In this document: positions 9,601-64,000 of the stretch, piece after piece
How the letters are laid out: every line of letters begins with the position of its first letter
How positions within the stretch are numbered: position 1 is the stretch's first letter
Source: an uncultured Ruminococcus sp.
GTDB lineage: Bacteria > Bacillota > Clostridia > Oscillospirales > Acutalibacteraceae
Length of the DNA stretch: 64,000 nt
Direction of reading: 5' to 3'
NCBI GenBank assembly: GCA_902761345.1
Contig: CACWKD010000005.1
Span: 15,892-79,891, forward strand
Notes under the pieces: generated by a model
Told to the model about the DNA's origin: nothing
Database searches by the model: none
The model's input: only the letters and a program-made list of their open reading frames with translations
Program-made: the position numbers and the translations under genes

Positions 9601-9915
9601 CAGAATATCCCCACTGCACCCATAGTTCCCGATACTTCAACAGATACGTCAACAGACACTTCAACAGATTCCTCAACAGATACCGAAACAATAGAATACC
9701 TCGGCGATGTAAACGGTGATAATAAAGTTACGGCTAAGGACAGTATGCAGGTACAGAGATTTGTTATAAATCTTGCCAAACTTGACGAAAACCAAAAGAA
9801 GCTTGCAGACGTTGACGGTAACGGAAAAGTTACCAACGCAGACGCTTTGAGTATTCTGAGATACACTATTAAAGCAAATGTAAAATATCCTATCGGACAG
9901 GAAGTTACAGATTAA
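6700..9915 (+). CDS. Secreted BspA-type leucine-rich-repeat protein with Thr/Asp-rich linkers and a C-terminal dockerin
   Basis: RBS AAGGAGA. Signal peptide [24 protein letters not shown]. There are three blocks of LRR_5-like repeats ([49 protein letters not shown]). Linkers look like [14 protein letters not shown]. The dockerin is [56 protein letters not shown]. Confidence 0.85.
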   Translation: [1071 protein letters not shown]

Positions 9916-46911: not shown

Positions 46912-48939
46912 TCATTCCGATTTATTGCTGTTTGCAGGAATTGCTTCCCTATGTAATTTTATAAGCTGTTTTATAGCCTCCTCACCTATATCGTACCTTT
47001 CGGCAAGCTGCGTTACTCTTTGCTCCATATAATCAAGCAGAATATGGTCGCTTATCGGAGATACGCTGTCCCAAAGGTGAAATAATTCATTTTTATCGTC
47101 AATGTTTATCTCCTTTGCTCCCTTTATAATTCGCTCTGTGTTTATGTCTATATATTTCTGTGCGTCACTTCCAAATGCCCACTCAAATTCCTGCAAAATC
47201 GCCGTATCCTCGCTTACTCTGTCTGTGCGTTCGCTTAATTTGTACGGTCTGCTGTATCCTACTGCTTCAAGTGCGTCTGTGATAGTCTTTCTCACACTGC
47301 CCTCTTCAATTATATAACCAAGTCCATAGCTTCTTAACTCCTCGTTTACCTTAGATATATGTTCCACCAAAAACAGCCTTATCCCACGTTTCTTTAAATT
47401 CTTATAAAGTATGTCAAGAGTCTGCGCTCCCGTTGTATCTATACTTCCTATTCCGCTTGCATCTACTATTATATACCGTGTATCGTCTTTTATAGAATTT
47501 TCAATATCTCGTCTGAACCCCTCCACATTCGCAAAAAACAAGTTGCCCTTAAACCTATATATAACAACCTTTTCTATGGGACGTGATTTTGCATAGGATG
47601 CAATATTATAGAAATGATTTCTGCCCGGAATTACTCCCAAAAACGCTGTCGGGGGTGCGCTCTCTCTGATTATTACATTTAAAAATGATAGAAGCACTCC
47701 TATCACAACACCGTAAATCGTACCAAAAACAAGAACACCCAAAAATGCAGCTATAAAAATCCCCATTTCCTTACGGCTGCTTTTTGCAAGTTTATGTGCA
47801 AGCTCAAACTCTGTTCCGCTCCACAACGCACATACAACAATAGATGTCAAAACCGGTACAGGAAGATAACCTATAAATCCTGCCGCAAACATCAGTATTA
47901 AAAGCATTACACCGGCAGCCGTAAGCGACACTATCTGACTTGTACCTTTGTTTCTGTCATTCATTGTAGTTCTTGAAACGCTGCCGTTGAGCGGACACAC
48001 CCCTATAAATGCAGCCGCAATATTGCATACAGAAAATGCAAGCAGTTCATTGTTGTCGTCTATTGCATAACTGTTTTTAAGTGCAAAATTCTTCTCTGCA
48101 AGCAGCGTTTCCGAGGCTATTACAACAGAAATAGACAAACTCGCTGTTAGTGCATAATAGCAGTTATCAAGAGTAAAATTCGGAACAGAAAATTTTCCCA
48201 AACCGCCTGCAACCTTTGGAAGCGTGTTTATCCCCCATATTTCACAGTAATTAAACAGAAACTGTCCACCTGCCGCTAAAAGCATTACTATTGCTGACAT
48301 TGGGATCTTCGGTATAAATTTTCCCGACAACATTATTACCGCTATGCAGAAAACGGATAATACAAGAGATACTGCATTAAAGCTTTCGTTAAACGATTTT
48401 AAAATATGCTTTACAAGCTCAAATATTTCACCCGTACCGGACTGCCCACCGAACAGTTTAGGTATTTGCATCAGTATGATAGTGCAGCATATTCCGCTGA
48501 TAAATCCACCCATTACAGGCGATGACACAAACCGTGTAAGACTTCCGAATTTCATCAGGCTAAACAACAAGAGCCATATTCCCGTAAAAAATGCTATTAT
48601 CGGAACTATCGTGAGTGCCTCTTCGCTGCCGCTTACTATTCCGAGCGAGGCAAGAGTTCCACCTACTAAAGCGGCAGGTGCGGCGTCAACTCCGAATATA
48701 CATTGTGGTGAAGATGACAAAACCGCAAACAGAAATACAGGTATCACAGACCCGTACAGACCATACTGAGGGGGAAGTCCTGCAATCTGTGCATATCCCA
48801 TTGAAATAGGTATCGACACAAGCGCGATGATAATACCGCTTAATATATCTGTTTTTATCTTATCTTTCCTAAATGATTTCAGCCCCTGCAGCATATCGTC
48901 ACCGCTTTCGTATTTTATATTTATTATAGGATACAGCAT
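46912..48939 (-). CDS. SulP-family anion transporter with a STAS domain and an extra C-terminal domain of about 110 aa. The start is possibly MLQGLKSF at 48894.
   Basis: DILSGIIIALVSIPISMGYAQIAGLPPQYGLYGS; multiple TM segments; STAS-like VVIYRFKGNLFFANVEGFRRDI..YIIVDASGIGSIDTTGAQTLDIL. Confidence 0.88.
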   Translation of the reverse strand: MLYPIINIKYESGDDMLQGLKSFRKDKIKTDILSGIIIALVSIPISMGYAQIAGLPPQYGLYGSVIPVFLFAVLSSSPQCIFGVDAAPAALVGGTLASLGIVSGSEEALTIVPIIAFFTGIWLLLFSLMKFGSLTRFVSSPVMGGFISGICCTIILMQIPKLFGGQSGTGEIFELVKHILKSFNESFNAVSLVLSVFCIAVIMLSGKFIPKIPMSAIVMLLAAGGQFLFNYCEIWGINTLPKVAGGLGKFSVPNFTLDNCYYALTASLSISVVIASETLLAEKNFALKNSYAIDDNNELLAFSVCNIAAAFIGVCPLNGSVSRTTMNDRNKGTSQIVSLTAAGVMLLILMFAAGFIGYLPVPVLTSIVVCALWSGTEFELAHKLAKSSRKEMGIFIAAFLGVLVFGTIYGVVIGVLLSFLNVIIRESAPPTAFLGVIPGRNHFYNIASYAKSRPIEKVVIYRFKGNLFFANVEGFRRDIENSIKDDTRYIIVDASGIGSIDTTGAQTLDILYKNLKKRGIRLFLVEHISKVNEELRSYGLGYIIEEGSVRKTITDALEAVGYSRPYKLSERTDRVSEDTAILQEFEWAFGSDAQKYIDINTERIIKGAKEINIDDKNELFHLWDSVSPISDHILLDYMEQRVTQLAERYDIGEEAIKQLIKLHREAIPANSNKSE

Positions 48940-49005: not shown

Positions 49006-51117
49006 TTATTCAAGCTCAAAAGCTCCAGTGTACAATTGATAATACTTACCCTTCTGAGAAATCAGTTCCTCGTGACTTCCTCTCTCTATAATCCTGCCTG
49101 CTTCAAGTACCATTATAACATCTGAGTTCTTTACAGTTGACAGTCTGTGTGCAATTACAAATACCGTCCTGCCGTGCATAAGCGAATCCATACCCTTTGT
49201 TACAAGCATTTCGGTTCTTGTATCAATAGAAGATGTCGCCTCGTCCAGTATCATTACGGGCGGGTCTGCAACCGCTGCTCTTGCAATAGAAACAAGCTGC
49301 CTTTGACCTTGCGAAAGACTTCCGCCTGTTCCGTCTATCATAGTGTTGTAGCCGTCGGGCAGTCTTGTGATGAAGTCATCTGCATTGGCGAGCTTAGCGG
49401 CAGCTATACACTCCTCGTCTGTTGCGTCAAGCTTTCCGTAGCGAATATTATCCATTATACTGCCGGTAAACAGGTTTGTATCTTGAAGAACAACTCCAAG
49501 CGATTTTCTCAAATCTGCTTTCTTAATCTTATTGATGTTAATTCCGTCATAGCGGATTTTTCCGTCTGCTATATCGTAGAATCTGTTGATAAGGTTTGTT
49601 ATAGTTGTCTTTCCTGCTCCTGTCGCTCCGACAAAAGCTACCTTGTGACCCGGCTCTGCATAAATAGACACATTATGTAAAACTATCTTCTCGGGAACAT
49701 ATCCGAAATCCACATCAAACAGACGTACATCACCTTTAAGCTCCGTATAGGTTGTAGTACCGTCGCCGTGAGGGTGTTTCCACGCCCAGATACCTGTTCT
49801 CTCCTCACAGGGGACGATCTCTCCGTTCTCGTGCTTTGCATTGACCAGCGTTACATATCCGTCGTCACGTTCGCTCTCCTCGTCAAGCAGCGAGAATATT
49901 CTCTGAGCACCTGCAAGTGCCATTACTATTGAATTGAACTGCTGAGATACATTTCCGAGAGGGCCTGAGAAACTCTTTGAAAGCTGCAAGAATGATACAA
50001 TAGCACCTACCGTTAAAACTCCTCCGCCTGTAAGAGAAATCAATGCTCCGACTATCGCAAGCACCGCATACTGCAAGTTACCTATGTTCATCATAATCGG
50101 CATTAGCATATTTGCGTACTTGTTCGCGTTGTATGCAGAGTCGTAAAGCTCATCGTTGAGTTTATCGAAATCCTCTTTTGTTTTATCCTCGTGGCAGAAT
50201 ACCTTGATTACCTTTTGACCTGTTATCATTTCCTCGATATAGCCATTGACTTTGCCTAAAGACTGCTGCTGTGCTATAAAGTACTTTCCGCTGTTTCCGC
50301 CTACCTTCTTTACAACAAGAAACTGTATCACACAGAACAGCAAAACAACTCCCGTAAGATATGGACTTGTATATACCATTGCGCAGAAAACAGCAACTAT
50401 TGTTACAATTGAGTTGAACACCTGCGGAATACTCTGAGAGATCATCTGTCTTAAAGTATCTGTATCGTTTGTGTAGTAGCTCATAATATCGCCGTGAGTA
50501 TGGGTGTCGAAATACTTTATCGGCAAGGTTTGCATATGCTTGAACATATCGTCACGCACTCTTTTCAGCACACCCTGAGAAATTGTAATCATTATTCTGT
50601 TGTAGAGATACGAAGCACTCACACCTATAAAATACACAACTCCCATTACTATAAGTGCCCTTATAAGAGGTGCAAAGTCAGGGTGTACTTGTGTAAGCAT
50701 TGGGGTAATATAGCTGTCTATGAGCAGTTTAATAAACATAGAGCCTGCTACATTCACTACTGCACTAACAAGAATACATATAAGCACAAGGAAAAATCTT
50801 GCCTTATAGCGTGAGAAAACATAATTGAGCAGTCTTTTTACCGTACTTTTATCCACCTTCGGCATAGGCGGCTTTCCACCCTTCGGGGGCATTTTACCCA
50901 TTTTATCGGCGGCGTTACTCTTTTCTTTTGCTTTTTGCGTTTGAGCTTCAACCGTCTTTTTGCTCTTTTCGGGTTCAGTAACTTTCTCAGCCTTCTGCTC
51001 CTTCTGAGGTTGTGGCTTTACCGTTTGTTCTCCCTTATCGGGTGTTTGCACATTCTTCTTTTCCTGCGTCTTTTCAGCAGAGGGGTTTTGCTTTTTCTTG
51101 TTTTTCTTCTTACTCAT
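49006..51117 (-). CDS. ABC exporter, fused permease/ATPase half-transporter, with a Lys/Glu/Gln/Pro-rich N-terminal extension of about 90 aa
   Basis: Six-TM exporter domain; Walker A GATGAGKTT; signature LSQGQRQLVSIARA; Walker B ILDEATSSID. Its ATG overlaps the end of the upstream ABC gene. Confidence 0.9.
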   Translation of the reverse strand: MSKKKNKKKQNPSAEKTQEKKNVQTPDKGEQTVKPQPQKEQKAEKVTEPEKSKKTVEAQTQKAKEKSNAADKMGKMPPKGGKPPMPKVDKSTVKRLLNYVFSRYKARFFLVLICILVSAVVNVAGSMFIKLLIDSYITPMLTQVHPDFAPLIRALIVMGVVYFIGVSASYLYNRIMITISQGVLKRVRDDMFKHMQTLPIKYFDTHTHGDIMSYYTNDTDTLRQMISQSIPQVFNSIVTIVAVFCAMVYTSPYLTGVVLLFCVIQFLVVKKVGGNSGKYFIAQQQSLGKVNGYIEEMITGQKVIKVFCHEDKTKEDFDKLNDELYDSAYNANKYANMLMPIMMNIGNLQYAVLAIVGALISLTGGGVLTVGAIVSFLQLSKSFSGPLGNVSQQFNSIVMALAGAQRIFSLLDEESERDDGYVTLVNAKHENGEIVPCEERTGIWAWKHPHGDGTTTYTELKGDVRLFDVDFGYVPEKIVLHNVSIYAEPGHKVAFVGATGAGKTTITNLINRFYDIADGKIRYDGININKIKKADLRKSLGVVLQDTNLFTGSIMDNIRYGKLDATDEECIAAAKLANADDFITRLPDGYNTMIDGTGGSLSQGQRQLVSIARAAVADPPVMILDEATSSIDTRTEMLVTKGMDSLMHGRTVFVIAHRLSTVKNSDVIMVLEAGRIIERGSHEELISQKGKYYQLYTGAFELE

Positions 51118-52864
51118 CTTCGCCGCCCCCTTTCACCTGTGACTCATAAACCTCACGATAAATCGCATTATTTTTCAAGAGTTCCTCATGTGTTCCAAAT
51201 CCGTTAAGCTTACCGCCGTCAAGAACTATAATTCTGTCTGCGTCCTCAACCGAGGAAATTCTCTGTGCAATAATAAACTTTGTAGTATCGGGTATCTCCT
51301 CTGCAAAAGCCTTTCTGATAAGCGAATCCGTCTTAGTATCTACCGCACTCGTAGAGTCGTCAAGAATAAGTATCTTCGGCTTTTTGAGCAAGGCTCTTGC
51401 TATACACAAACGCTGTTTCTGTCCGCCCGATACGTTAGTACCGCCCTGTTCGATGTATGTATCGTATTTGTCGGGGAACTTCTCTATAAATTCGTCCGCA
51501 CACGCAAGCTTACAGACTCTTTTGATTTCCTCATCTGTTGCATCGGGATTACCCCAGCGGAGATTTTCTTTAATCGTACCCGAGAAAAGCACATTCTTCT
51601 GGAGAACCATAGCAACATTATTTCTGAGCGTTTCGAGGTCATAATTACGCACATCTACTCCGCCTACGATGACCTTACCCTTTGTAGCGTCATAAAGTCG
51701 TGGAATAAGCTGTACAAGGCTCGATTTTGAAGAACCCGTACCGCCGATTACGCCTATTACCTCACCCGACTTTATATCAAGGTCAATATCGCTCAAACAA
51801 TATCTGTCGGACGCATTATAGCTGAATGATACTCCCTCAAACTTTACAGAACCGTCCTTTACTTCCATTACAGGATCATCGCCGTTTGTAAGGTCGGATT
51901 TCTCGTCAAGCACCTCGCATATTCTCTCTGCCGATGCTTTTGAAATTACTATCATCATAAATATCATAGAAAGCATCACCAGACTGATAAGCATCTGCAT
52001 TAAATACGAATACAGACTTGTAAGCTGTCCCGTTGTAAGTCCTGCGTCGGGGTTATTTCCCGAGGCTACAATGAATTTTGCGGAAAGCCAAGACAGACAA
52101 ATCATACTTCCGTAGATGACAAGCTGCATAACAGGCATATTAAAGATAATAATTTTCTCTGCTTTTATAAACAAGTCGTATATCTTGCCTGATACGTCTT
52201 TAAACTTCTTATCCTCGTAATCCTCTCGTACGAATGTTTTAACAACTCTTATACCGTGAAGATTTTCCCCTACAATATTATTAAGCTTATCGTAAGTCTT
52301 AAACACCTTTTCAAAAATCGGGTGTGCGTTTGACATTATTATAAAAAATGCTACTGCAAGTATCGGTACTGCAAGCAGATACATCAGCGAGATAGTTTTG
52401 TTTATTCTGAACGCACTTATCATACAGAATATTATCATCGCAGGACTTCTGAAAGCTGTACGAACTATCATCATATAAGCGTTTTGTACGTTAGATACAT
52501 CGGTAGTAAGTCTTGTAACTAAACTTGAAGTCGAAAACTTATCTATATTTGAGAAAGAGAACCCCTGTACATTATAGAACATGTCTCTTCTCAGATTTTT
52601 TGCAAAGCCTGCCGCAGCTTTTGCCGCAAAAATTCCTGCCAACGCACCGCACAACAGCGATAAAAGACACGCTGTTACAAGCTTCGCACCCGTAAGCCAA
52701 ACATATGACATATCTCCCGGGTTTATTCCGAAGTCAATAAGCTCAGCCATTAGCCTCGGAATTATAACTTCAAGTATAACCTCACCGACAACTGTGATCG
52801 GTGCAAGTATTGAAAAAAGCCAATATTCCCTTACGCAGCCTGCAAGCTTTTTTATCATACACAT
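51110..52864 (-). CDS. ABC exporter, fused permease/ATPase half-transporter, partner of 49006..51117. The start is more likely MIKKLAG at 52858.
   Basis: Walker A GGTGSSKSS, signature VSGGQKQRLCIARA, Walker B ILDDSTSAVD. RBS AAAGGAGAG. Confidence 0.9.
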   Translation of the reverse strand: MCMIKKLAGCVREYWLFSILAPITVVGEVILEVIIPRLMAELIDFGINPGDMSYVWLTGAKLVTACLLSLLCGALAGIFAAKAAAGFAKNLRRDMFYNVQGFSFSNIDKFSTSSLVTRLTTDVSNVQNAYMMIVRTAFRSPAMIIFCMISAFRINKTISLMYLLAVPILAVAFFIIMSNAHPIFEKVFKTYDKLNNIVGENLHGIRVVKTFVREDYEDKKFKDVSGKIYDLFIKAEKIIIFNMPVMQLVIYGSMICLSWLSAKFIVASGNNPDAGLTTGQLTSLYSYLMQMLISLVMLSMIFMMIVISKASAERICEVLDEKSDLTNGDDPVMEVKDGSVKFEGVSFSYNASDRYCLSDIDLDIKSGEVIGVIGGTGSSKSSLVQLIPRLYDATKGKVIVGGVDVRNYDLETLRNNVAMVLQKNVLFSGTIKENLRWGNPDATDEEIKRVCKLACADEFIEKFPDKYDTYIEQGGTNVSGGQKQRLCIARALLKKPKILILDDSTSAVDTKTDSLIRKAFAEEIPDTTKFIIAQRISSVEDADRIIVLDGGKLNGFGTHEELLKNNAIYREVYESQVKGGGEDE

Positions 52865-52888: not shown

Positions 52889-53329
52889 TCACTGACTTTC
52901 GGCATTTTTCTGTACTTTGGCGAGAACCTCATAGAATATGTCAAGCTTATCCTCGGGTATTCCCTTTGTCAAGCTATCCTCAAACTCTATCGTGCGTTTG
53001 TTGACTTCATCGCATATTTCAAGAGCCTTTTGAGTGAGTACAAGTTTTTTAAGTCTTGCGTCACGCTCAACAGAAACCCTCTCAATATAACCTTTTTTTT
53101 CAAGCAAAGATATTATACTTGATGAAGTTGAACGTCTGATGTAGAACTTTTCCTCTATGTCTTTTTGAAAAACGTCCTCGCCGTCATGGTCGAACAGATA
53201 CATCAGCAGCCAGCAGTTTGACGTTGTTATCTCGTCGCCGTACACGTCTTTACATCTGCCCGAAAATGCACGTCTTATGCAGTTTGAAACACGCTTCATA
53301 TCACGACCAACATATCTGTCACTATCCAC
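52889..53329 (-). CDS. MarR-family transcriptional regulator
   Basis: 146 aa with a winged-HTH region QKDIEEKFYIRRSTSSSIISLLEKKGYIERVSVERDARLKKLVLT. It sits first in the operon with the two ABC genes. RBS AGGAGG with a GTG start. Confidence 0.85.
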   Translation of the reverse strand: MDSDRYVGRDMKRVSNCIRRAFSGRCKDVYGDEITTSNCWLLMYLFDHDGEDVFQKDIEEKFYIRRSTSSSIISLLEKKGYIERVSVERDARLKKLVLTQKALEICDEVNKRTIEFEDSLTKGIPEDKLDIFYEVLAKVQKNAESQ

Positions 53330-53521
53330 AAAAACACCTCCTTTTTTCTTTTATAAAAAAATGTCAGTACACTAATAGTTCGTGTACTAACATTATAACT
53401 CTTTGATATAAAATATGTCAATTCATATGTAAAAAATGTACAATTTTCGTCAATATGCTGTAAAGTATTGATATTCAAGGGCATTTATTAGATCATCTCA
53501 CAAATACCCCTACCTACAATT

Positions 53522-53900
53522 TTATTTATCAATCTTCTCCAACAACTGCTCGATGACATCTGCACAATCATCGGGTCTTTGGGCAAAGATATAGTGATCT
53601 CCCCCCAAAAGCACCATCTCACAGTTACCCATTTTCTCTGTATAAGGCTTGATAACAGTATCTCTCATATTTTGCGACTGCTCAAGTGTTACAGAAATAA
53701 GCGACTTGTCAAAATTCACCGCCCGCTTCATTGAGCATATCAAACTCTTGTGCAAGCTTTATCTTGTTTACCGTAAAAACTACGGCTACAAACACAACAA
53801 ACACCATTAAAACTCCGAAGATTATTCTTTTAATGATTTTCCTTTTGTCAATTTCGTCTTGCTCATACCATTTTCCTCACTTTGTTTTACAATATACTGT
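53522..53900 (-). pseudogene. Remnant of a membrane-anchored alpha/beta-hydrolase. Only N-terminal anchor and C-terminal fragments survive, in different frames.
   Basis: One minus-strand frame gives ..YEQDEIDKRKIIKRIIFGVLMVFVVFVAVVFTVNKIKLAQEFDMLNEAGGEF*. A second frame (ORF 53522..53755) gives ..MVLLGGDHYIFAQRPDDCADVIEQLLEKIDK, a typical alpha/beta-hydrolase C-terminus. The catalytic core of about 200 aa is missing. Confidence 0.55.
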
Positions 53901-53923: not shown

Positions 53924-54580
53924 TCACACATTATCATCAGTATCGTTTTTTTCTGTATACCTTTTCAGTTTATTTGTTACACGTTCGAGCTGATCAACAT
54001 ACTCTTTTATTTTCGTTATTTCATTTTGACTGTACAGCCTTAGTCCCGAAACCAATACTGCAATAGATAGGAAAATCGCTCCGCATAATACACCTGCAAT
54101 AAAAGCAATAACTCCCTTAAAAACCGACTTTGACTCCTTTTGTTTATCAGATGATGTATTGCTTTCGTCCGCAGAACTTACTTCGGACGTACTATCCTCT
54201 GTTTTGCTTTCATCAGCGATACTGCTGTCTTCCGATTTACTGCTCACTTCAAAGATACCGCCCTCTTCTGTTGTAACGGTGCTTTCATCGCTGTCCGTGT
54301 TTTCTGTACTTTTTTCCTCACTCTTGTTGTTCTCTTCTCCAAAGATGTCGGAATTAGCGCCTTTTATAACATCAGGCTCACTTTGAACTTCTCCATCTTC
54401 ACCGTCTAATTCTTCATCATCGTACAAATAATCAGGCTCTTCTTCGTCTATGTAGTCATCATTGTAATCATCATACACATCGCCGTAATAGTAATCGTCT
54501 TCCGCACTTGCAGAAACACCGCCGAATATCAACAGCAGCGATACAGCAATACAATTAAGTATTAATAATAGTCTTCTCAT
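53924..54580 (-). CDS. Bitopic acidic protein. It has a signal peptide or TM, a Asp/Glu/Tyr-rich and Ser/Glu/Thr-rich ectodomain, a TM helix, and a short cytoplasmic coiled coil. It is the last gene of the candidate operon.
   Basis: MRRLLLILNCIAVSLLLIFGGVSASA, EDDYYYGDVYDDYNDDYIDEEEPDYLYDDEELDGEDGE, a second TM VIAFIAGVLCGAIFLSIAVLVSGL, and a tail NEITKIKEYVDQLERVTNKLKRY. RBS GGGGAG lies 27 nt after the upstream stop. Confidence 0.7.
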   Translation of the reverse strand: MRRLLLILNCIAVSLLLIFGGVSASAEDDYYYGDVYDDYNDDYIDEEEPDYLYDDEELDGEDGEVQSEPDVIKGANSDIFGEENNKSEEKSTENTDSDESTVTTEEGGIFEVSSKSEDSSIADESKTEDSTSEVSSADESNTSSDKQKESKSVFKGVIAFIAGVLCGAIFLSIAVLVSGLRLYSQNEITKIKEYVDQLERVTNKLKRYTEKNDTDDNV

Positions 54581-54607: not shown

Positions 54608-57600
54608 TCAGAAACTTTCCGATATTATCCTGCCAACCTCAAAAAGATATACCGCATTGTGTATCATTTCAGGGTAAACATCGGCATTTGCAGCCCTCAT
54701 AAACGAGCTGTTCTTATCTTTAGAGATAATTCGTTTTGATATTTTCCTCTCATTCATCTTATCTACCAAAATATGCTCGTTTCCGTCGGGTATAAAGAAT
54801 TGTTCTATCTCCGAAACATACTCTTTTAGTTCTGCAAAAGGATTTTTAATAAAGTTTGCAGTTCTGTATCGCTGTTCTTTATTTTTATTGAGTTCATCTC
54901 CGCTCTTCAAAGGAGTAATATTATACTCTGCACACTTGTCACGTCTTAGCGGGTTTGTAATATAGTCCATATTTCGAGGGTCAATATATCTCCACTCTGT
55001 AACCGTTGTTTTGGTATCGTGCAAATGTACATTGTACAACTGAGAATTATCCGCACCACTGTTGTTAAAAGCGTCCGCATATACATCGAGTTTTTCAAGT
55101 CCTTTTAACAGCAGCTGTTTTGAATCGCCCTCAGGTACTTTAACGCTTACACTTATGTTGTATTTGCCGAAATACTTGTTTATCATCGAAATAAACTCGT
55201 TCGTAAACTTCTCAGCCAACAGCAGACCCTTTGAACCGCCGCCGTAGAAATTAAGGCTTACAGTAGCGTCTGTATGTTCGCAGGCATTCAGAGATGTTTG
55301 TGCAAAATCCTTTATAATAGGAATAAGTACGGCGTATCTGTAAAGGAGAGCCGATCTGATTTTAGGATCACACCCGTCAATGTTTATGTCGGCACATTCA
55401 AGTATCTCCATAAAAATATTCTCCCATGCAGCACTTTCAATATCTCCGCTGTCGTTTATATCACTGACAAATCTCTTTGCAAGCATACTTGCGTAATTTT
55501 GCAGAGGCTTTTTGTTTTCTTCCGACTTAGGCTCAAAGAAACCCGATACTCTTTCATTGCCGATCAAAAACTCTGTAATATTTCTCTCAAAGTCTTGCGG
55601 ATCACTCTTGCTGCCGCTATGTATCAGCATATCGAAAACCGCGCGTTTTAAAAGTTGCTTTCCCGCATACTCAATTGACGAATATCCGCAGAATGTTTTC
55701 GTATTGTTCACACAGTAAACTGCCGCCATATCCGTAGTCGAGTCGCCAATATCTATACCGATTATCAGATTGTTGTTTGCCATACTGCTGCCCGAAATAC
55801 CATTTGTAATAGCAAGACTTTCATACAGCAAATAATTATTTTTGCAGGTTATTACACTGTTTATCTGCAAATCATGAAAAACATTCGTTTTGAAATTATT
55901 ACTTAAATGGTAAGTAATAATATGATACAATTCCCTGTAATCTTCATTTGGAAACGACTGTATAAAAACAGCCTCCTCGCAGTTTGACGCTATCACATGA
56001 CACAACGCAGTATAAAACAGATTATAGATCATAGCTTGCAGAGTGTTATTAATAGTACCTGTTGAATTTGCAAGCAATGATTTATTTACGTCGCATATTT
56101 TCAAACCCTTTTCCTCAAATTTTGAGAAATGCCTATGGAAAGGCAGAAAAACATTGTCAAACGACACATCGCTAAACGGCTTGTCACAATACTCGATAAG
56201 AGCCGACGGAACAGAGCCGTTTTTCTCATACAGCGAGGGCATATTCAAAAAGTATGAATATCTCTCATTATCAAAGCTGCCGATAAGCTCACGGACAATA
56301 TTTGTTCCGCCCGTAATATCATCTAACAAACTTCCTCCGTTACCTATTTTATAGCCGACTGCACTTGAACTGCTGCCAAGATCCATATAAATATACATCG
56401 TGCTTTTCGGCTCGATTTTTACCGAATTAATATCAAACGATGTTATTTTATCTTCCTCAAGCAGAGGCGGCGTACACTCGTTACCCAATTTATGGATATT
56501 GATTATACAGCCTGCATAGCGATTTTCTCCCGAATATTTTGTTTTGCACAAGCTTACTTTAAATACATGTATCGGCTTATCGGAAGAATAAATATAAATC
56601 TTGTCACCGCTGTATGACTGTTTAAAATCCACTTCGCTGAGTTCAAGATTTTCTGCCGTACCGCCGTTTGATAAGCTTACGTTTAAATCGTAAAAATAAT
56701 TATACGATTTGCAGCGATATTCATATTCAATAGGTATGTCGGGATATGTACAAAATGTTCCTACACCGTCTGCACTCTTTATATTATCTCCGATATATTG
56801 TTTCTCATCTGTAAAATAATACGGTACTTTAAAGCTATCTGCATTCTCTTGACCAATATCTTTAAAAGATACTTTATAGCAAAATTTTCCACTTACAGTA
56901 TACTTTTCGGAAATTTCTTCATCATAGGTATGCTGCATAACTATGTTTTCTACCGATGTAATATTTCTTTCGATATCCTCTGCAAAATTCTTTTTCAACG
57001 GGTACAGAGCCACACACTTTCCGTTTACCTTTGATACATAAATATCATCGCAAAGAACATTATCCGACAAAACGGCATTTTCTATATCATAAAGCTTTAG
57101 AAAACCAACCGAACTATACGGTACATCTTCGCTGAAATTTATATCGCACTGTACAGCCGATAAAATAAACTCCCTTATCATCATAACGGGTAAATTCTCA
57201 GGGAGAGAATATGCCGAAAACTTTAGCTTTATTCGAAACGATACGGGTATCTGTGTGTTTATATACTTATCAAGGTTTTCTGTTTTTATAAGCTCCGAGA
57301 ACAGTTCCTCCCAGCCGTTGTCTTTACTCGCAATATGACGTGACGGGATTATGCAGTATCTGTTCGAGAAGCTGCCAATTGCAGTTCCTGTTTCATTTTT
57401 GACAAACTCATATACATAAAATTGATTTTTTGTATCTTCATCGGCAGAATTGCTTTGAGGGCAATTATCGTCCGTTTTGTCAAATAAAAACTTATTTTTC
57501 CAAACCCTCAAAAACGTATTATTCTCTATCGGATAACCGACTGTTTTAAGATGATAACCGTTATAAGAACCGTATATCATCATACATATTACAGCGGCAA

Positions 57601-57859
57601 CCCACCTTTTGAGTACGGGATTTCTGCCTAATTCACCTAAAACTTGTTTTTTATCTTGTGACCTTGAATACTTACCCCAAAGATTATCTATCGACCTCAT
57701 CGTATGGATAAAATGATCGTGTCCCTCAAAGCCTGTTCCTATCGAAAACTTGCGTTCGGCAAGCGCGGCATAATCCTTTACACTGCCCGATACTTTGTAA
57801 AATCTTGTGTCCCTGTAATCTGTACCGTCGTTGGTATCTCGTATGTTTGAAGTTACCAT
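54608..57859 (-). CDS. Giant (1083 aa) protein with a C-terminal actin/Hsp70-like (ASKHA) ATPase core; paralogue of 60549..64000
   Basis: The ordered motifs are IYMDLGSSSSAVGY (phosphate-1, about 56355-56390), LLYESLAI (EPxAA-like), IGIDIGDSTTDMAAV (phosphate-2, about 55717-55762) and NFYGGGSKGLLL (adenosine motif, about 55220-55250). Its start ATG overlaps the upstream stop (ATGGTAA). Confidence 0.75.
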   Translation of the reverse strand: MVTSNIRDTNDGTDYRDTRFYKVSGSVKDYAALAERKFSIGTGFEGHDHFIHTMRSIDNLWGKYSRSQDKKQVLGELGRNPVLKRWVAAVICMMIYGSYNGYHLKTVGYPIENNTFLRVWKNKFLFDKTDDNCPQSNSADEDTKNQFYVYEFVKNETGTAIGSFSNRYCIIPSRHIASKDNGWEELFSELIKTENLDKYINTQIPVSFRIKLKFSAYSLPENLPVMMIREFILSAVQCDINFSEDVPYSSVGFLKLYDIENAVLSDNVLCDDIYVSKVNGKCVALYPLKKNFAEDIERNITSVENIVMQHTYDEEISEKYTVSGKFCYKVSFKDIGQENADSFKVPYYFTDEKQYIGDNIKSADGVGTFCTYPDIPIEYEYRCKSYNYFYDLNVSLSNGGTAENLELSEVDFKQSYSGDKIYIYSSDKPIHVFKVSLCKTKYSGENRYAGCIINIHKLGNECTPPLLEEDKITSFDINSVKIEPKSTMYIYMDLGSSSSAVGYKIGNGGSLLDDITGGTNIVRELIGSFDNERYSYFLNMPSLYEKNGSVPSALIEYCDKPFSDVSFDNVFLPFHRHFSKFEEKGLKICDVNKSLLANSTGTINNTLQAMIYNLFYTALCHVIASNCEEAVFIQSFPNEDYRELYHIITYHLSNNFKTNVFHDLQINSVITCKNNYLLYESLAITNGISGSSMANNNLIIGIDIGDSTTDMAAVYCVNNTKTFCGYSSIEYAGKQLLKRAVFDMLIHSGSKSDPQDFERNITEFLIGNERVSGFFEPKSEENKKPLQNYASMLAKRFVSDINDSGDIESAAWENIFMEILECADINIDGCDPKIRSALLYRYAVLIPIIKDFAQTSLNACEHTDATVSLNFYGGGSKGLLLAEKFTNEFISMINKYFGKYNISVSVKVPEGDSKQLLLKGLEKLDVYADAFNNSGADNSQLYNVHLHDTKTTVTEWRYIDPRNMDYITNPLRRDKCAEYNITPLKSGDELNKNKEQRYRTANFIKNPFAELKEYVSEIEQFFIPDGNEHILVDKMNERKISKRIISKDKNSSFMRAANADVYPEMIHNAVYLFEVGRIISESF

Positions 57860-59487: not shown

Positions 59488-60552
59488 TTATTGACTTATT
59501 TTTCCTTTTTGCAAGATTTTGTTATATTCATCTACTACACAAGGCTGTATCAACTTGTAGCTTTCATCAATGAAGTAGCTGTCACACTCATAAACAGAAT
59601 CATCGATCTCATTAATGTTGAATGCACTTGTTTTGTTCGGCAGGATTATGTATCCGTACTGTTCATCTTTGCATCTCACGTAAGGAGTGTCCGAATTTTC
59701 GCTGTACATAGTATGACTGAAGTTAGACATACCCGAATCCAGTTTCAGGAACGGAGTTGTAGGATCTTTTCGCAGTCTTCTGACTTGATTGAATACATCT
59801 TCCATAGTGCGGTACTTGGACATAGCTTCAGCTCTTGCCTGTTCCTCAGCAATGCGTTTATTCTCTTCCTCTTGTTTTCGTTTAGCTTCCAACTCAGCTT
59901 TCTTTCTATTTTCAGCTTCTAATTCCCTGTCTCTATGTAATTCCTTCTGTGCTATACGTTCGTTAACACGTTTCTCCAGATACTCTTCAAATGTTTCGCT
60001 TGGATTGGCGCTGTTTAAAAAGAGTATCGCACAACCGGTGCTGTCCGAGCTGATTACAGTCTGCGGCATCTCATACAACACATAAGGCGCTGAATTGCCG
60101 TCATTTACCCCTTTTGTGCCATTCGGTAAACGCAGCCATTTTTTAGAATTATCCATATCAACCAAAAAGCGTTCTCTGTTGTTGGGATCTCTATCTATAT
60201 GACCGTTTACACGAAAACAAATCGAAAGTGTACCATTCTGCTCTTGATGAGGAGGAGTGACTTTTGGAACATCTAAGTCGTATAAATCATTTTGCGAAGC
60301 TGCGTTCGGACGCAACATAAAACCGCTCATGTCTTGACCTTGACGTCCCGACTTCACAGGTGTGTTATCGGGAATTATTTGAGGATTTTGTTTGCTGTTA
60401 CCCGAACGATCATTGCGTTTGGGATTGTAAATCCCCGGTGAAGAAACATCGAGTACATCTTTTACCGCCTCAATTATGTTGATAGCATCTTGTAGTTTTC
60501 TCGACAATATCTGCATATCGGAATCATTTTTATGATTCACCATAATCATCAA
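59488..60552 (-). CDS. Hypothetical 354-aa protein with a central highly charged coiled coil or single alpha-helix; part of the candidate operon
   Basis: The ORF start overlaps the upstream stop (TGATGA context preceded by GGAGGT). The central segment is ELHRDRELEAENRKKAELEAKRKQEEENKRIAEEQARAEAM. There is a Gln/Asn/Pro-rich, low-complexity segment near the N-terminus. Confidence 0.6.
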   Translation of the reverse strand: MMIMVNHKNDSDMQILSRKLQDAINIIEAVKDVLDVSSPGIYNPKRNDRSGNSKQNPQIIPDNTPVKSGRQGQDMSGFMLRPNAASQNDLYDLDVPKVTPPHQEQNGTLSICFRVNGHIDRDPNNRERFLVDMDNSKKWLRLPNGTKGVNDGNSAPYVLYEMPQTVISSDSTGCAILFLNSANPSETFEEYLEKRVNERIAQKELHRDRELEAENRKKAELEAKRKQEEENKRIAEEQARAEAMSKYRTMEDVFNQVRRLRKDPTTPFLKLDSGMSNFSHTMYSENSDTPYVRCKDEQYGYIILPNKTSAFNINEIDDSVYECDSYFIDESYKLIQPCVVDEYNKILQKGKISQ

Positions 60553-63500
60553 CCTCCGAATTCATGGCCGTTAGCTGTACCGTTGTTTATAATTCTGCTG
60601 GTTGGGTTATAGCTGCCCTGATACTGCGAAAGCATCTTGCTTAGAGTAAACATAAATATAGCGCTCTGCATCATCTCGGGGTATATACAAGAGTTAGTAG
60701 CCTTTACAAAACTATTATTCGGGAAACCTAAGAGTTCTCTGTTAATAGCGTTCTGCATATTCTGTGATGCATTAGAAAGGAACGACTCGGTCAATACTTC
60801 GATCGGGTCTTGAACACCGTCATCATTGTTTATGAGCTGATCGTAGATCTCTTTCTTATAAAAAGCACTGATATCTTCAAACGGATTTCCTACATTATCA
60901 TAATACGACACAACATTATGAATGATCTGATCGTTAGCCTGCTTGTCGGCATTGCTGTTGCCTGTATAGACAAACGATTTGTTCCTCTGAAGAGCGTCTG
61001 TGTGAACGCTTGCAGTTGTTCCGAATGCTTCTGTATATTTCGGATTTACTTCATCGTCCCAATTTACCGGTGCTACCGTAACGCCATTAATGGAAAGCTC
61101 GAATACACCGTTATTCTGGTTCTTATCAATTCTTGCCAAACCGTCTATCAAAGTCTGCTTATCGTTATCTTGGGAAACACTAACGCTGACAGCGCCGGGA
61201 AACGCATTATTGAAATAACGATCAAGCAGTGTACGCACGTTAGTATTTCTCGAATCAAGATTGTTAAATAAATCTATACCCTTTGAAGCGCCGCCCTGGA
61301 ACTTAATATTAATACTTGCCCCCGGATTATATATTGATCCTGCAATTTTAATTGCTGTATTAATAAAGTCCTTAATAACAGGCATCATAAACATATATCT
61401 GAGGATAAAGTCAGCTGCGACTTTCTGATCCTTTACACCAACTCCTGCGCCAAAAGAAGCAACATCAAGAATATCCATAACTTTACTTTCAAAGTAATCG
61501 TTATCGTTTTGGTTCGCTTTGAGGTCGTTAATATATCCCTTGTATAAGGTCGTGTTATTACCTTTCGGTACAAATATAGGCTGACCGTAAGCGCATTGAG
61601 GATCAAGCGAACCGATAAGATGCTTATCAGCCATATCGCTTCCCTGAGCAAGAATATCTTTAACAACCGTCTTGATAAGATCCTTTCCTGCATACTCAAT
61701 GGAAGAGTATCCGCAGAAGTGTATCGTGCCGCCTGCGTCAACATATACAGCCGACATATCTGTTGTTCCGTCACCCATATCAATATTAATATTGAGTGCG
61801 TTTTGAGCAAGACCGTTAGTACCCAAAGTAACGCCGATACTCTCGTATAAGAAATGATTATTTCTATGATCAAGATAAAAATCATAAGTTAATCCGCTGA
61901 ACACCTGACTTACAGCATTCTTCGCTTGTGACCACGTTGTTTGTAGGTTCGGCTCATAATCCTTACTCGGCAGCGACGGTACGATCGTTACTTCACTGCA
62001 ATTGTTATCGATCGCATTGCAGGCAATTGTATAAAGCATATTGTGTATGACGATCTTCGGATGAACAAAAGCTCCTCCGCCTGTAACCAGTTCTGTCTTA
62101 TGGCTTGTAAAGGTATTGCCGATACCGCCGTAATTGGCATAGCTTTTTACAAAAGGCGTCCATGCGTCCTTATAAGGCATAGAATCAGCTACAGGAGCTT
62201 GCTTGTCATACAGAGAAGTTGTTGAAAGGAATTTATGATCTGTGTTTATTTCCGGATCATTGACAAGTATGCTGTACGCATTTTTAGCATAATCAACAAG
62301 ACATCTGCGTAATGTACACTTATTCTCTACCAAGCTTCCTCTATATCCGTTTCCTAAAGTAGTATCAACTTCATATCTTATATAAGAAGAACTGCTTCCG
62401 AAGTCAATATAAGCGCGAAGCTTGTGAGTTCCCGCAGGTCTGTCGTTATCGATACCAATGTCAACGCCCATTCCCTTATCAGCAAGCAGCGCAGGCAGAT
62501 CGCCCTTTCCTCTTGTTCTGAGGTTAAGAACATAACCGTAGGATCTTACTCCGTTTCTATCGGAGATCATTATAAAATGCTCGGGCAAGGTGGCTTCTGT
62601 TGATGAAATATCGATCTTATCATAAGCCTTTACATTCTTGTATGGCGCTAATGCACTCGGGGCAAAATCAATGAGCTTTTTAAGTGTTGTATCTCCGTTC
62701 AGCGAACCCATAAGCAGTCCGTCTTGAAGCACAACAGCTGTACCTAACCCCTTTACCTGATCCAACAGTATGTTAGTACCTTTTCTGCTGAAATATGTAA
62801 ACTTATTGCATCTGTGTTCCAAATCAGAGGTCAGATTAGGATACATACAAATAGTGGGGATCGCACGAATCCACTGGATCTCTCCCTTGTCGGCGCTGTA
62901 AGTCTTTGTTTTTGTATAATTTATTGTATGATCATACTTCGGAACACCTGCATTATTGATAAACTGCAGTGAGGTATTGACTGTGAAATCCAATTCCGCA
63001 GATGTAACCAAAGCAGTGTCAGCGAAGTCGGTTTTTACCTTTAGCTTAACATCATTGATCTTGCCGCCGTCCTTTACAAACTGTACGCCTATTGCGCTTA
63101 AAGGATAAGTAGAGTAGAACTTCTCATCATGACGTCCGAGATACAGCGTGTCATTTATCATTGCATCAAGATCTCTGTATCCGCTTATCTTGTAAAAACT
63201 AATGCCGTTGATAGTTTTCCAAGGTGTTACAGATCCGGCAGGAAGTACAACGCCGTTCGGCAGCTTAATAAGCTCCTTTATAAGAGCTGCTGCAAGCTGA
63301 AGAGGAGCAGGCTCTGTTGTAGATATGGAGTCGGCGCTCATGTGCAGGAATATCTTCTGCTTAACATTAAGCTCGTTCAATCTATCTGTGTACTTTTCCC
63401 AGACATCACTTAGCTTTATCTGTGTATTTGGATTATCTCTTCCCTCGCAAAGGTACAAATACTTCTTCTTCCACTCGGGAACTGCACCCGGAACACCGCT

Positions 63501-64000
63501 TAGCTTGTACTCTTTCATAGGTATAACAAACAACTGATCGTGGAATGTTCCGACATTGTTATGATAACCTAATTTCGGTAATGCAGGATTTGTAGGATCC
63601 ATTGTTATATAATTAAAAGAAGTTGAGCTTAATCCGGGAACAGGCAAACCTAATGCGTTAGCTCTTACTGTACCGTCATTATTATTACTGCCGCCGTTTC
63701 TTTCAAACTTTTTCTTCCATATTTCAAGAAAACGAGTACCCTGAATAGAATTACCCATTCCATCTTTAAACGGCTCGCCCTCTATGTGAACATCTGTCTG
63801 ATCATCGCAGCCGTACATTATACAGCATATCAAAGCAGATAACCATGATCGCAGATAGCCGCCCGATTTTTTCTTTAGCTCGGGAACGATAGTATTGTTT
63901 ATAGTTGCAGCCATTGGCGCGGCCTTATAAATACCTGCAATATGTGTTACCTTATTTTCCATAGTAATAAAGTGATCGCTGTCGCCGTCAACCTCCGCAA
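60549..64000 (-). CDS. Giant (more than 1137 aa) protein with an actin/Hsp70-like (ASKHA) ATPase core; paralogue of 54608..57859. The 5' end is probably outside the window.
   Basis: The ordered motifs are YIDFGSSSSYIRY (about 62373-62412), FLYESIGV, NIDMGDGTTDMSAVYV (about 61741-61790) and KFQGGASKGIDL (about 61273-61305). The frame stays open upstream of the first ATG (63962) to the window edge. There it reads ..GDSDHFITMENK.., which aligns with EGHDHFIHTMRS at residues 46-57 of the paralogue. Confidence 0.75.
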   Translation of the reverse strand, partial: AEVDGDSDHFITMENKVTHIAGIYKAAPMAATINNTIVPELKKKSGGYLRSWLSALICCIMYGCDDQTDVHIEGEPFKDGMGNSIQGTRFLEIWKKKFERNGGSNNNDGTVRANALGLPVPGLSSTSFNYITMDPTNPALPKLGYHNNVGTFHDQLFVIPMKEYKLSGVPGAVPEWKKKYLYLCEGRDNPNTQIKLSDVWEKYTDRLNELNVKQKIFLHMSADSISTTEPAPLQLAAALIKELIKLPNGVVLPAGSVTPWKTINGISFYKISGYRDLDAMINDTLYLGRHDEKFYSTYPLSAIGVQFVKDGGKINDVKLKVKTDFADTALVTSAELDFTVNTSLQFINNAGVPKYDHTINYTKTKTYSADKGEIQWIRAIPTICMYPNLTSDLEHRCNKFTYFSRKGTNILLDQVKGLGTAVVLQDGLLMGSLNGDTTLKKLIDFAPSALAPYKNVKAYDKIDISSTEATLPEHFIMISDRNGVRSYGYVLNLRTRGKGDLPALLADKGMGVDIGIDNDRPAGTHKLRAYIDFGSSSSYIRYEVDTTLGNGYRGSLVENKCTLRRCLVDYAKNAYSILVNDPEINTDHKFLSTTSLYDKQAPVADSMPYKDAWTPFVKSYANYGGIGNTFTSHKTELVTGGGAFVHPKIVIHNMLYTIACNAIDNNCSEVTIVPSLPSKDYEPNLQTTWSQAKNAVSQVFSGLTYDFYLDHRNNHFLYESIGVTLGTNGLAQNALNINIDMGDGTTDMSAVYVDAGGTIHFCGYSSIEYAGKDLIKTVVKDILAQGSDMADKHLIGSLDPQCAYGQPIFVPKGNNTTLYKGYINDLKANQNDNDYFESKVMDILDVASFGAGVGVKDQKVAADFILRYMFMMPVIKDFINTAIKIAGSIYNPGASINIKFQGGASKGIDLFNNLDSRNTNVRTLLDRYFNNAFPGAVSVSVSQDNDKQTLIDGLARIDKNQNNGVFELSINGVTVAPVNWDDEVNPKYTEAFGTTASVHTDALQRNKSFVYTGNSNADKQANDQIIHNVVSYYDNVGNPFEDISAFYKKEIYDQLINNDDGVQDPIEVLTESFLSNASQNMQNAINRELLGFPNNSFVKATNSCIYPEMMQSAIFMFTLSKMLSQYQGSYNPTSRIINNGTANGHEFGG

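Follow-up and report, generated by a model that had tools for sequence, protein, structure and literature searches.

Two giant paralogues with probable actin/Hsp70-type ATPase domains and their tubulin-like neighbors in an uncultured Ruminococcus

The giant genes A and B

The DNA analyzed here is a stretch of 64,000 nt from an uncultured Ruminococcus sp. (assembly GCA_902761345.1, contig CACWKD010000005.1, positions 15,892 to 79,891 of the forward strand), referred to throughout as the window, which holds two giant genes on its minus strand, gene A and gene B. Both very probably encode proteins with an ATP-binding domain of the actin/Hsp70 type, i.e., of the ASKHA (acetate and sugar kinase/Hsp70/actin) superfamily, and they are ancient paralogues in a previously unnamed family of giant ASKHA proteins, for which no database holds a name.

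54608..57859, minus strand: gene A, giant paralogue with a very probable ASKHA domain; open reading frame (ORF) of 1083 aa, with its translation
60549..64000, minus strand: gene B, second giant paralogue with a very probable ASKHA domain; frame open up to the end of the window

The original prediction had described both giants, and both genes are real, but it overlooked that the end of the window truncates B. The first ATG inside the window lies at 63962 and would give a product of 1137 aa (60549-63962). L004, a public contig that overlaps the window (99.98% identity over 60018-64000) and adds 9 kb upstream of the window end, places the start 52 codons further out (about 118 nt past position 64000), for a full length of 1189 aa; the orthologues of B measure 1189-1215 aa. 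Counted along the full-length protein, the ASKHA domain of B begins at about residue 565, against about residue 486 in A. Gene B sits 2.7 kb upstream of A in the same orientation, and the two products align from end to end by BLASTP at 23% identity (E 5e-64), bearing out the proposal that they are paralogues. No transmembrane segment was noted in A or B by simple inspection of hydropathy and motifs, the approach behind all membrane and signal calls given here.

Searches with A, B and the products of three neighboring genes (g506, g354, and g218, described below) against Pfam, NCBIfam, PADLOC, and PHROGs returned nothing meaningful. A word-indexed search of 5.8 billion protein clusters recovered four relatives of A and five of B, none of them named, and the same kind of search with broad alignment returned only three proteins, which were already known. 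The family became visible by profile search over 1.84 billion cluster representatives, with 72 proteins at E<=1e-3 and 44 at E<=1e-30; the 44-sequence alignment used below takes in members only 13-16% identical to A. The weakest-scoring representatives (roughly 930-1,230 aa) match in the central region only, where they carry IGIDFGTTSTN, VDIGGGTTDVS, and LAGCGSKG.

The ASKHA domain and its active site

Every motif string quoted in the original prediction is present in A and B, in the order and with the spacing described there. The five ASKHA motifs (phosphate 1, connect 1, phosphate 2, adenosine, and connect 2) follow one another in canonical order in both proteins, and their spacing is similar between the two. 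They are given here together with two further conserved segments of A; residues of B are in in-window numbering.

56363..56386, minus strand: A, phosphate-1 motif MDLGSSSS, residues 492-499 (D493 and G495 invariant in 44 of 44 sequences)
56078..56095, minus strand: A, segment CDVNKS with K593, which is invariant in the 44-sequence alignment and found in all A-type and B-type proteins
55811..55831, minus strand: A, connect-1 motif LLYESLA, residues 677-683 (E680), aligned with ParM 'vmPESi' and invariant in nine sequences
55718..55762, minus strand: A, phosphate-2 motif IGIDIGDSTTDMAAV, residues 700-714 (D703, G705, D706, T708, T709, D710)
55658..55693, minus strand: A, family-specific block FCGYSSIEYAGK, third strand of lobe II and start of the next helix
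55226..55249, minus strand: A, adenosine motif FYGGGSKG, residues 871-878 (G873, G874), after model strand 866-872
55088..55126, minus strand: A, connect-2-like helix DSKQLLLKGLEKL (model helix 913-922; K914 and G920 conserved)
62385..62408, minus strand: B, phosphate-1 motif IDFGSSSS, residues 519-526
61833..61853, minus strand: B, connect-1 motif FLYESIG, residues 704-710
61746..61790, minus strand: B, phosphate-2 motif INIDMGDGTTDMSAV, residues 725-739
61278..61301, minus strand: B, adenosine motif FQGGASKG, residues 888-895

In a six-frame translation of the whole window, the patterns D.GSSSS, D.GD.TTD, GG[GA]SKG, and GYSSIEYAGK were each found exactly twice and only in A and B, so that the motif match is not a chance one. 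The motif residues are invariant across nine orthologues. Among the 44 family members, D493, G495, K593, and G705 are invariant, as is G733 of A within the block FCGYSSIEYAGK common to A and B, while D703, D706, D710, and G874 are nearly so; G873 too is invariant or almost invariant. K593 may correspond to the lysine that is catalytic in Hsp70 (K70/K71). The phosphate-2 motif of A aligns with DLGGTTLD of ParM in the profile-to-PDB comparison and with DLGGGTFD of DnaK by hhalign. Given that A and B in the window keep every phosphate-1, connect-1, phosphate-2, and adenosine residue, it is reasonable to infer that both bind nucleotide. The earlier proposal that both copies are nucleotide-binding is thus plausible for the window's own pair but does not extend to the whole family, as the A-type proteins of two related loci (L012 and L014) have lost catalytic residues.

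An AlphaFold2 model of A built from the 44-sequence alignment (predicted local distance difference test score, pLDDT, 87; predicted template-modelling score, pTM, 0.82) replaced an earlier, poor model from nine sequences (pLDDT 58), which already pointed to Hsp70 nucleotide-binding domains. On this model and its Foldseek matches, the ASKHA domain of A is delimited as follows.

55070..56404, minus strand: A, ASKHA ATPase domain, residues about 486-930

The domain comprises two beta-beta-beta-alpha-beta-alpha-beta-alpha lobes with the motifs on the expected strands and helices. The strand 486-494 ends in D493, the next strand is 627-636 and is followed by the helix 639-660; LYES opens the helix 680-686, phosphate 2 lies on the strands 697-704, 709-717, and 720-729, the strand 866-872 leads into the GG motif and then the helix 874-886, and connect 2 is the helix 913-922. 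An insert of ~100 aa after strand 2 of lobe I holds K593, and a helical insert of ~120 aa (754-859) in lobe II occupies the position of subdomain IIB.

Foldseek searches of the model against the PDB gave 371 matches at E<=1e-3, the best 50 of which are all ASKHA proteins. The top matches are the nucleotide-binding domains of Hsp70, DnaK, BiP, and mortalin (E 5e-8, probability 1.0, target-normalized template-modelling (TM) score 0.40-0.50), and beta-actin and MreB are also among the structural matches. With full-length DnaK, BiP, and Hsp110 chains, most alignments span ~500 columns; a few longer ones (~740-760) have a root-mean-square deviation (rmsd) of 22-28 Angstrom. In the viral structure library BFVD, all significant matches (E<=1e-3) were likewise ASKHA proteins, with viral homologues of Hsp70 and one Kae1/TsaD-type protein among them.

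At the sequence level, the 44-sequence family profile matched ParM among PDB sequences with a marginal E of 4.4e-4, placing LYES on PES and DIGDsTTD on DLGGTTLD, and actin, MreB, and other actin-like ATPases scored more weakly. Distant members gave sub-threshold Pfam matches to MreB_Mbl, FtsA, and EutA (21.8 bits for MreB_Mbl in the member P0068, cut-off 27; 17-18 bits for FtsA, cut-off 31.8). The ASKHA fold of the original prediction is therefore backed both by the two-lobed model, with its matches to Hsp70, actin, and MreB, and by profile searches, which retrieved ASKHA families only (ParM, actin, MreB, and FtsA). Used singly, A and B gave only noise against PDB sequences by phmmer, and hhalign of the family against E. 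coli DnaK aligned the phosphate-2 region only, with a probability of 7.7%, which is not to be read as a negative result. HSP70 (PF00012) was matched by neither A, B, nor any of the 44 members at E<=0.1, and the MreB_Mbl, FtsA, and ParM models were not matched above cut-off by A, B, or family members. As none of these models was matched at threshold, A and B lie outside the Hsp70, ParM, MreB, and FtsA families proper.

On either side of the ASKHA domain, A carries long additional regions, which contain conserved blocks of their own.

56405..57859, minus strand: A, N-terminal region, residues 1-485 (model helical at 27-96 and 182-235, beta-rich at 249-475)
57566-57610, minus strand: A, N-terminal conserved block KRWVAAVICMMIYGS
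57488-57514, minus strand: A, N-terminal conserved block FLRVWKNKF
54611..55069, minus strand: A, C-terminal region, residues 931-1083, mostly helical in the model
54641-54679, minus strand: A, C-terminal conserved block VYPEMIHNAVYLF (YPEM block)

The N-terminal 485 residues of A have no relatives in Pfam, NCBIfam, PADLOC, PHROGs, or PDB sequences, and none were detected at the sequence level for the C-terminal 150 residues. The stretch reported ahead of the ASKHA domain is found in both giants, as ~490-570 residues lacking detectable relatives. The pair of N-terminal blocks noted earlier is also present in both proteins, but the strings named first, RSWLSALICCIMYGC and FLEIWKKKF, belong to B and not to the gene at 54608-57859.

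The surrounding cluster and its tubulin-like proteins

Genes A and B belong to a cluster with the order u635 - u167 - u620 - B - g354 - g506 - A - g218, which recurs in metagenome-assembled genomes of rumen Ruminococcus and Oscillospiraceae where the contigs suffice (related loci are cited by L numbers, as above). Its tubulin-like partners and membrane components, absent from the original prediction, provide a context for the giants that had gone unnoticed.

L004 4486-6393, just past the window end: u635, cluster lipoprotein
L004 6993-8855, beyond the window: u620, gene before B
59488..60552, minus strand: g354, 354 aa, between B and g506; Lys/Glu-rich coiled-coil-like segment at ~190-250, no transmembrane segment
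57853..59373, minus strand: g506, 506 aa, directly upstream of A; divergent Tubulin_2/FtsZl1-like
53924..54580, minus strand: g218, last gene of the cluster; signal peptide, acidic low-complexity region, one transmembrane helix, and short tail

The conserved core of the cluster consists of a lipoprotein, a small polytopic membrane protein, a tubulin-like protein, and a giant ASKHA protein. In the cluster of the window, u635 is a lipoprotein with a lipobox, u167 has four transmembrane segments, and g218 is bitopic. In distant single-copy relatives, the core runs from a protein of ~520-570 aa through one or two small membrane proteins and a protein of ~500-585 aa to the giant. The position of g354, which has no family match, is conserved in related loci. 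Homologues of g218 follow the A-type gene in L001, L007, L008, L009, and L010, and they also lie downstream of the distant giant in L022/L023, with a 675-aa gene in between.

The gene just ahead of A (g506) and the one just ahead of B (u620) are likewise paralogous to each other (26% identity, E 1e-37). Their products appear to belong to the Tubulin_2/FtsZl1 family on a transitive but consistent sequence argument, made through more canonical relatives; PF13809 (Tubulin_2) corresponds to the family that Makarova and Koonin (2010) described as FtsZl1, or 'FtsZ-like' (PMC2875224; PMC9871819). On a plasmid of Gloeothece verrucosa PCC 7822, found by tblastn with a distant family member, the gene before a 1118-aa giant is annotated as a 'tubulin-like domain-containing protein', and its product scores 40.8 bits against Tubulin_2 (cut-off 27). 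The tubulin-like protein of L020 matches Tubulin_2 and Tubulin weakly. A profile holding u620 and g506 matches the Gloeothece protein at E 3e-15, and hhalign aligned the 15 members of the g506/u620 family with the distant group, which includes a bona fide PF13809 protein, at a probability of 97% (E 9e-11, 403 columns), placing NxWGGEG on the GGTG loop and INCGGYKGGGTAAT on the FGGTGAAG loop. In the reverse direction, jackhmmer started from the Gloeothece PF13809 protein retrieved all the syntenic partners, including g506 and u620, and nothing else. In g506 itself, the glycine-rich loops have decayed (NAWGESG and INTGDYSSDSTAITF).

A tubulin-like gene directly precedes the giant in the window/L004 and in L001, L003, L006, L007, L009, L011-L016, and L020-L025, a count that leaves out L008, L010, and L017-L019 on account of too little upstream sequence. 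Neighbor-joining trees separated the A-type and B-type giants into clades of their own, both nested inside the single-copy relatives, and five loci (L001, L009, L012, L014, and L016) have one member in each clade, in agreement with the earlier view that the duplication is old and that both copies were kept. The tree of the tubulin-like proteins largely mirrors that of the giants, except that the second copies of L012 and L014 group with the u620 clade. Taken together, the two trees indicate that the two-gene unit was duplicated once, before these lineages diverged; the Ruminococcus-like lineage carries the tandem units u620-B-g354 and g506-A-g218.

The two units differ in how well their nucleotide sites are preserved. 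All catalytic positions are kept in the B-type giants (9/9 loci) and in eight of the ten A-type giants, the window included. The A-type proteins of L012 and L014 carry substitutions such as E680D and D710K, and that of L014 also has D703E, D706H, and T708F. Conversely, the glycine-rich loops are gone from the tubulin-like protein paired with A in the window and in L001, L006, L007, and L009 (GDYSSDSTA and similar) but are retained in L012 and L014. Within this small sample, nucleotide-site decay in the second module looks complementary, affecting either the tubulin-like partner or the A-type giant; the B-type modules are intact throughout. Such complementary decay is a natural experiment on which of the nucleoside triphosphatase (NTPase) activities are needed.

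We did note two irregular loci among the relatives. In L006 (5360-6289), the gene after the A-type one resembles u620 (54% identity), suggesting another module order or a further copy, and the B-type gene at L015 2324-5886 is split into two ORFs (424 and 795 aa), being either a pseudogene or an assembly error.

The core also occurs on cyanobacterial plasmids, namely those of Gloeothece PCC 7822 (L024; NC_014503.1 39251-47534), Picosynechococcus PCC 8807, 73109, and 7003, and Synechococcus NIES-970. Locus L025 (NZ_CP016489.1 132389-141012) is on one of the Picosynechococcus plasmids, where the core genes (134328-141012) encode products of 409, 155, 509, and 1100 aa. On the plasmids, the core comprises a small multi-transmembrane protein, a tubulin-like one, and the giant, plus two proteins encoded further downstream, which in Gloeothece are coiled-coil paralogues, and almost all of these genes are annotated as hypothetical. 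Profile searches likewise recovered the lipoprotein, tubulin-like, and giant families from the Picosynechococcus plasmids. Picosynechococcus PCC 7002, a close relative of the plasmid-bearing strains, is genetically tractable, and the system may therefore be testable outside uncultured rumen bacteria.

The surroundings of the distant clusters vary. A phage-type integrase adjoins the cluster of L022/L023 (L022 3158-4231), two TerD genes and a P-type ATPase that of L021 (3483-4805), and an agrB/histidine-kinase pair that of L020 (1-1395), and a neighbor in L017 (5121-6254) has faint DO-GTPase2 and mad8/HerA-like matches. A phage origin was considered and rejected, with no matches found in viral contigs or phage genomes.

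Beyond the window end, the cluster continues on L004 (1-8988) with a transglutaminase-like lipoprotein (459 aa, PF01841, lipobox), whose gene recurs in L003 and L012. It also encodes a protein of 432 aa whose tail is rich in Lys and Glu, as well as two proteins of 347 and >156 aa that have no known domains. The lipoprotein u635 contains a von Willebrand factor A (vWA)/MIDAS-like string, VNVYYDNSQGCF (YFDNTGSM in its L020 counterpart), and an invariant hhhh[ST]D[LM]xE strand, also seen in L020, L021, L022, and L025. We nonetheless rejected the assignment of u635 as a vWA protein, given that the likeness is confined to MIDAS-like strings and that the Pfam VWA model and PDB profile searches gave no support.

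At its other end, the cluster borders on sequence features and genes of a separate kind.

53720..53737, minus strand: weak terminator-like hairpin after g218, found by consensus match
53392..53421, minus strand: sigma-70-type promoter, perfect 12/12, before the MarR gene

The hairpin likely marks the 3' end of the cluster; such sites are no more numerous in the window than in shuffled sequence. Past it come a MarR regulator (52889-53329), a pair of ABC exporter genes (49006-52864), and then a SulP/STAS transporter (46912-48939). The MarR gene and the two exporters were rejected as parts of the system and probably form a separate unit, because a perfect promoter of their own precedes MarR. The window otherwise looks chromosomal (EF-G, ProRS, and GroEL), with dockerin, BspA-type leucine-rich repeat (LRR), and serpin genes typical of rumen Ruminococcus. 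Its other large genes, at 6700-9915, 13102-14481, 28353-31925, 35068-40368, and 40595-42292, encode a BspA-type LRR protein with dockerin, a serpin, an SbcC/Rad50-like ATPase (1190 aa), a 1766-aa DUF11/DUF7507 repeat protein, and a MutS2-like protein. Both the dockerin and the serpin are in keeping with a rumen Ruminococcus that bears a cellulosome.

Comparison with known systems and possible function

Of the known ASKHA proteins, Hsp70/DnaK is the best structural match to the giants and shares with them the same order of an Asp at phosphate 1, a Glu at connect 1, DxGxxTxD, and GG at the adenosine motif. They also have in common a Lys (invariant in the giants) that lies after phosphate 1 and before the first long helix, and, in lobe II, a large insert made up of helices. 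Unlike Hsp70, the giants begin with a 485-aa N-terminal region and carry Asp at the phosphate-2 position where Hsp70 has Gly (DIGDSTTD versus DLGGGTFD); a substrate-binding domain was not recognized in them. Among ParM, MreB, and FtsA, ParM is the best profile match, with PES at connect 1 where the giants have YES; however, the giants are three times larger, all Pfam matches remain below the gathering cut-offs, and nothing like ParR/parC or MreCD genes was recognized near them. The giants also resemble SrfB (PF07520, of the SrfABC cluster) in their size of ~1,000 aa and in having a membrane-anchored partner in the cluster. We rejected this relationship, as it comes down to a lone sub-threshold match of the distant member P0054 in the phosphate-2 region (16.3 bits, E 0.0025, cut-off 27.1); A and B have no SrfB match, no SrfA- or SrfC-like neighbors were detected, and a literature search on the SrfB fold found nothing.

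The cluster as a whole shares with the FtsZl1 systems the same divergent tubulin-like family (by the transitive assignment above) and several membrane or extracytoplasmic proteins. FtsZl1/Tubulin_2 operons are predicted to form membrane-associated complexes, and the published partners are vWA proteins, a diverged P-loop GTPase, protein kinases, and OmpA (PMC2875224); by profile, none of these partners was detected in the present cluster. In the published neighborhoods examined, many entries are ~850-1,190 aa in length (PMC2875224). Additional file 5 of that study lists amb2961, a 1626-aa COG0443 DnaK-like protein, beside the Magnetospirillum FtsZl1 gene, and a 1083-aa 'GrpE' (COG0576) gene in the FtsZl1 neighborhood of Chloroflexus aggregans (PMC2875224). 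The text of the paper discusses neither an actin/Hsp70-like partner nor Hsp70-system-like neighbors, and it describes no giant ASKHA protein as an obligatory companion (PMC2875224). Our literature searches turned up no experimental characterization of FtsZl1 proteins and nothing relevant on a described ASKHA-tubulin or ASKHA defense system. In outline, the cluster is also analogous to FtsZ-FtsA, in that a gene of the tubulin superfamily adjoins one of the ASKHA superfamily and the pair would act at the membrane; in contrast to ftsA-ftsZ, the gene order is reversed, the ASKHA protein is a giant with no identified membrane-targeting helix, and there is no match to FtsZ/Tubulin or FtsA at threshold.

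Taken together, we regard it as moderately probable that the giants are ATP-driven partners of their cognate tubulin-like proteins at a membrane complex encoded by the conserved cluster. Each giant would bind and hydrolyze ATP in its Hsp70/actin-type cleft, and the ATP cycle would control or anchor the cognate tubulin-like partner at a complex of the polytopic protein and the lipoprotein, in a manner analogous to the action of FtsA on FtsZ or as an Hsp70-type nucleotide-gated clamp. Given that g506 has lost its glycine-rich nucleotide loops, the second module would probably be regulatory or structural. The output could be membrane remodeling, as predicted for FtsZl1 systems, or a function in conflict or defense.

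Several points weigh against this reading. The TM scores of 0.40-0.50 and an rmsd near 10 Angstrom to Hsp70 nucleotide-binding domains show that lobe geometry or inserts differ considerably from those of known members and that the ASKHA domain is a distant, heavily decorated one. Neither g506 nor u620 directly matches Tubulin_2 or any PDB tubulin/FtsZ, and two PDB profile searches with the partner family and hhalign against E. coli FtsZ gave nothing. Contact between giant and tubulin-like protein is proposed from adjacency and co-duplication. The hallmarks of FtsZl1 operons (a Pfam-recognizable vWA protein, a diverged P-loop GTPase, and OmpA) were not detected by profile in this cluster: the lipoprotein family and the other neighbors have no match to VWA in Pfam, and neither the window and L004 nor the Ruminococcus loci yielded a diverged P-loop GTPase, the faint DO-GTPase2 match in the distant locus L017 being the only trace. 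Finally, the integrase or TerD neighbors of some relatives fit a mobile conflict system as well as they fit a housekeeping membrane machine.

A different reading, which takes up the heteromeric pair suggested in the original prediction, is that A and B form a heteromeric cytomotive filament of the ParM/MreB type, which would make the cluster a new bacterial actin cytoskeleton. ParM as the best sequence-profile match, actin and MreB among the structural matches, ancient paralogues kept side by side, and the fully intact nucleotide-site residues in the window's A and B all speak for it. We nevertheless consider such a filament unlikely, as the nucleotide-binding domains of Hsp70, which do not form filaments, outrank actin and MreB in both structure libraries, and a lattice would need room for the 485-aa N-terminal and 150-aa C-terminal additions. 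In addition, distant members are single copy per locus, so an A-B heteromer cannot have been the ancestral mode, and the genomic context points first to each giant's own tubulin-like protein as its partner, not to the other giant.

Slightly less likely again, in our estimation, is a mobile conflict system, either anti-phage defense or an SrfABC-style toxin (SrfABC has been reported as a tripartite toxin; bioRxiv 10.64898/2026.09.18.752743), with the giant ASKHA protein as an NTP-dependent sensor or effector. Pointing that way are the sparse and patchy spread of the family (~72 cluster representatives in 1.84 billion proteins), its presence on plasmids, the relatives beside a phage-type integrase and TerD genes, the L017 neighbor with faint DO-GTPase2 and mad8/HerA matches, and the weak SrfB match of one distant member (E 0.0025). 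However, that SrfB match is single and below the curated cut-off, the core components are matched neither in PADLOC or PHROGs nor in viral or phage collections, the core shows no recognized effector domain of the nuclease, protease, or pore type, and the cluster of the window sits among chromosomal housekeeping genes (EF-G, ProRS, and GroEL). That the motif likeness is superficial, and that A and B are not ASKHA-fold ATPases at all, is effectively refuted and would be very surprising. It could draw on the lack of direct Pfam, NCBIfam, or PDB-sequence matches for A and B and on the restriction of the hhalign comparison with a single DnaK (7.7%) to the phosphate-2 region, yet it is contradicted by the high-confidence model with its 371 significant structural matches, the in-register match of the family profile to ParM, and the invariance of motif residues among sequences only 13-16% identical.

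Returning to the partnership of giants and tubulin-like proteins, the family itself is a very divergent, giant, and wholly unannotated addition to the actin/Hsp70 superfamily, for which a confident structural model and an active-site map at residue level are now available. The locus also holds more of interest than first described, because relatives of both cytoskeletal NTPase superfamilies are paired in a conserved and unannotated cluster, and a fixed ASKHA partner is a concrete handle on what FtsZl1 systems do. More tentatively, and with considerable doubt, the cluster may encode a new two-NTPase machine, in which a GTPase of the tubulin superfamily and a giant ATPase of the actin/Hsp70 superfamily form an obligate, co-evolving pair at a dedicated membrane complex of lipoprotein and polytopic protein, duplicated in rumen Ruminococcus into an active and a partly inactivated module. 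If true, the two modules would be comparable in logic to alpha/beta-tubulin, and the machine would represent a new prokaryotic class of cytoskeletal or membrane-remodeling systems that joins both major cytomotive superfamilies.

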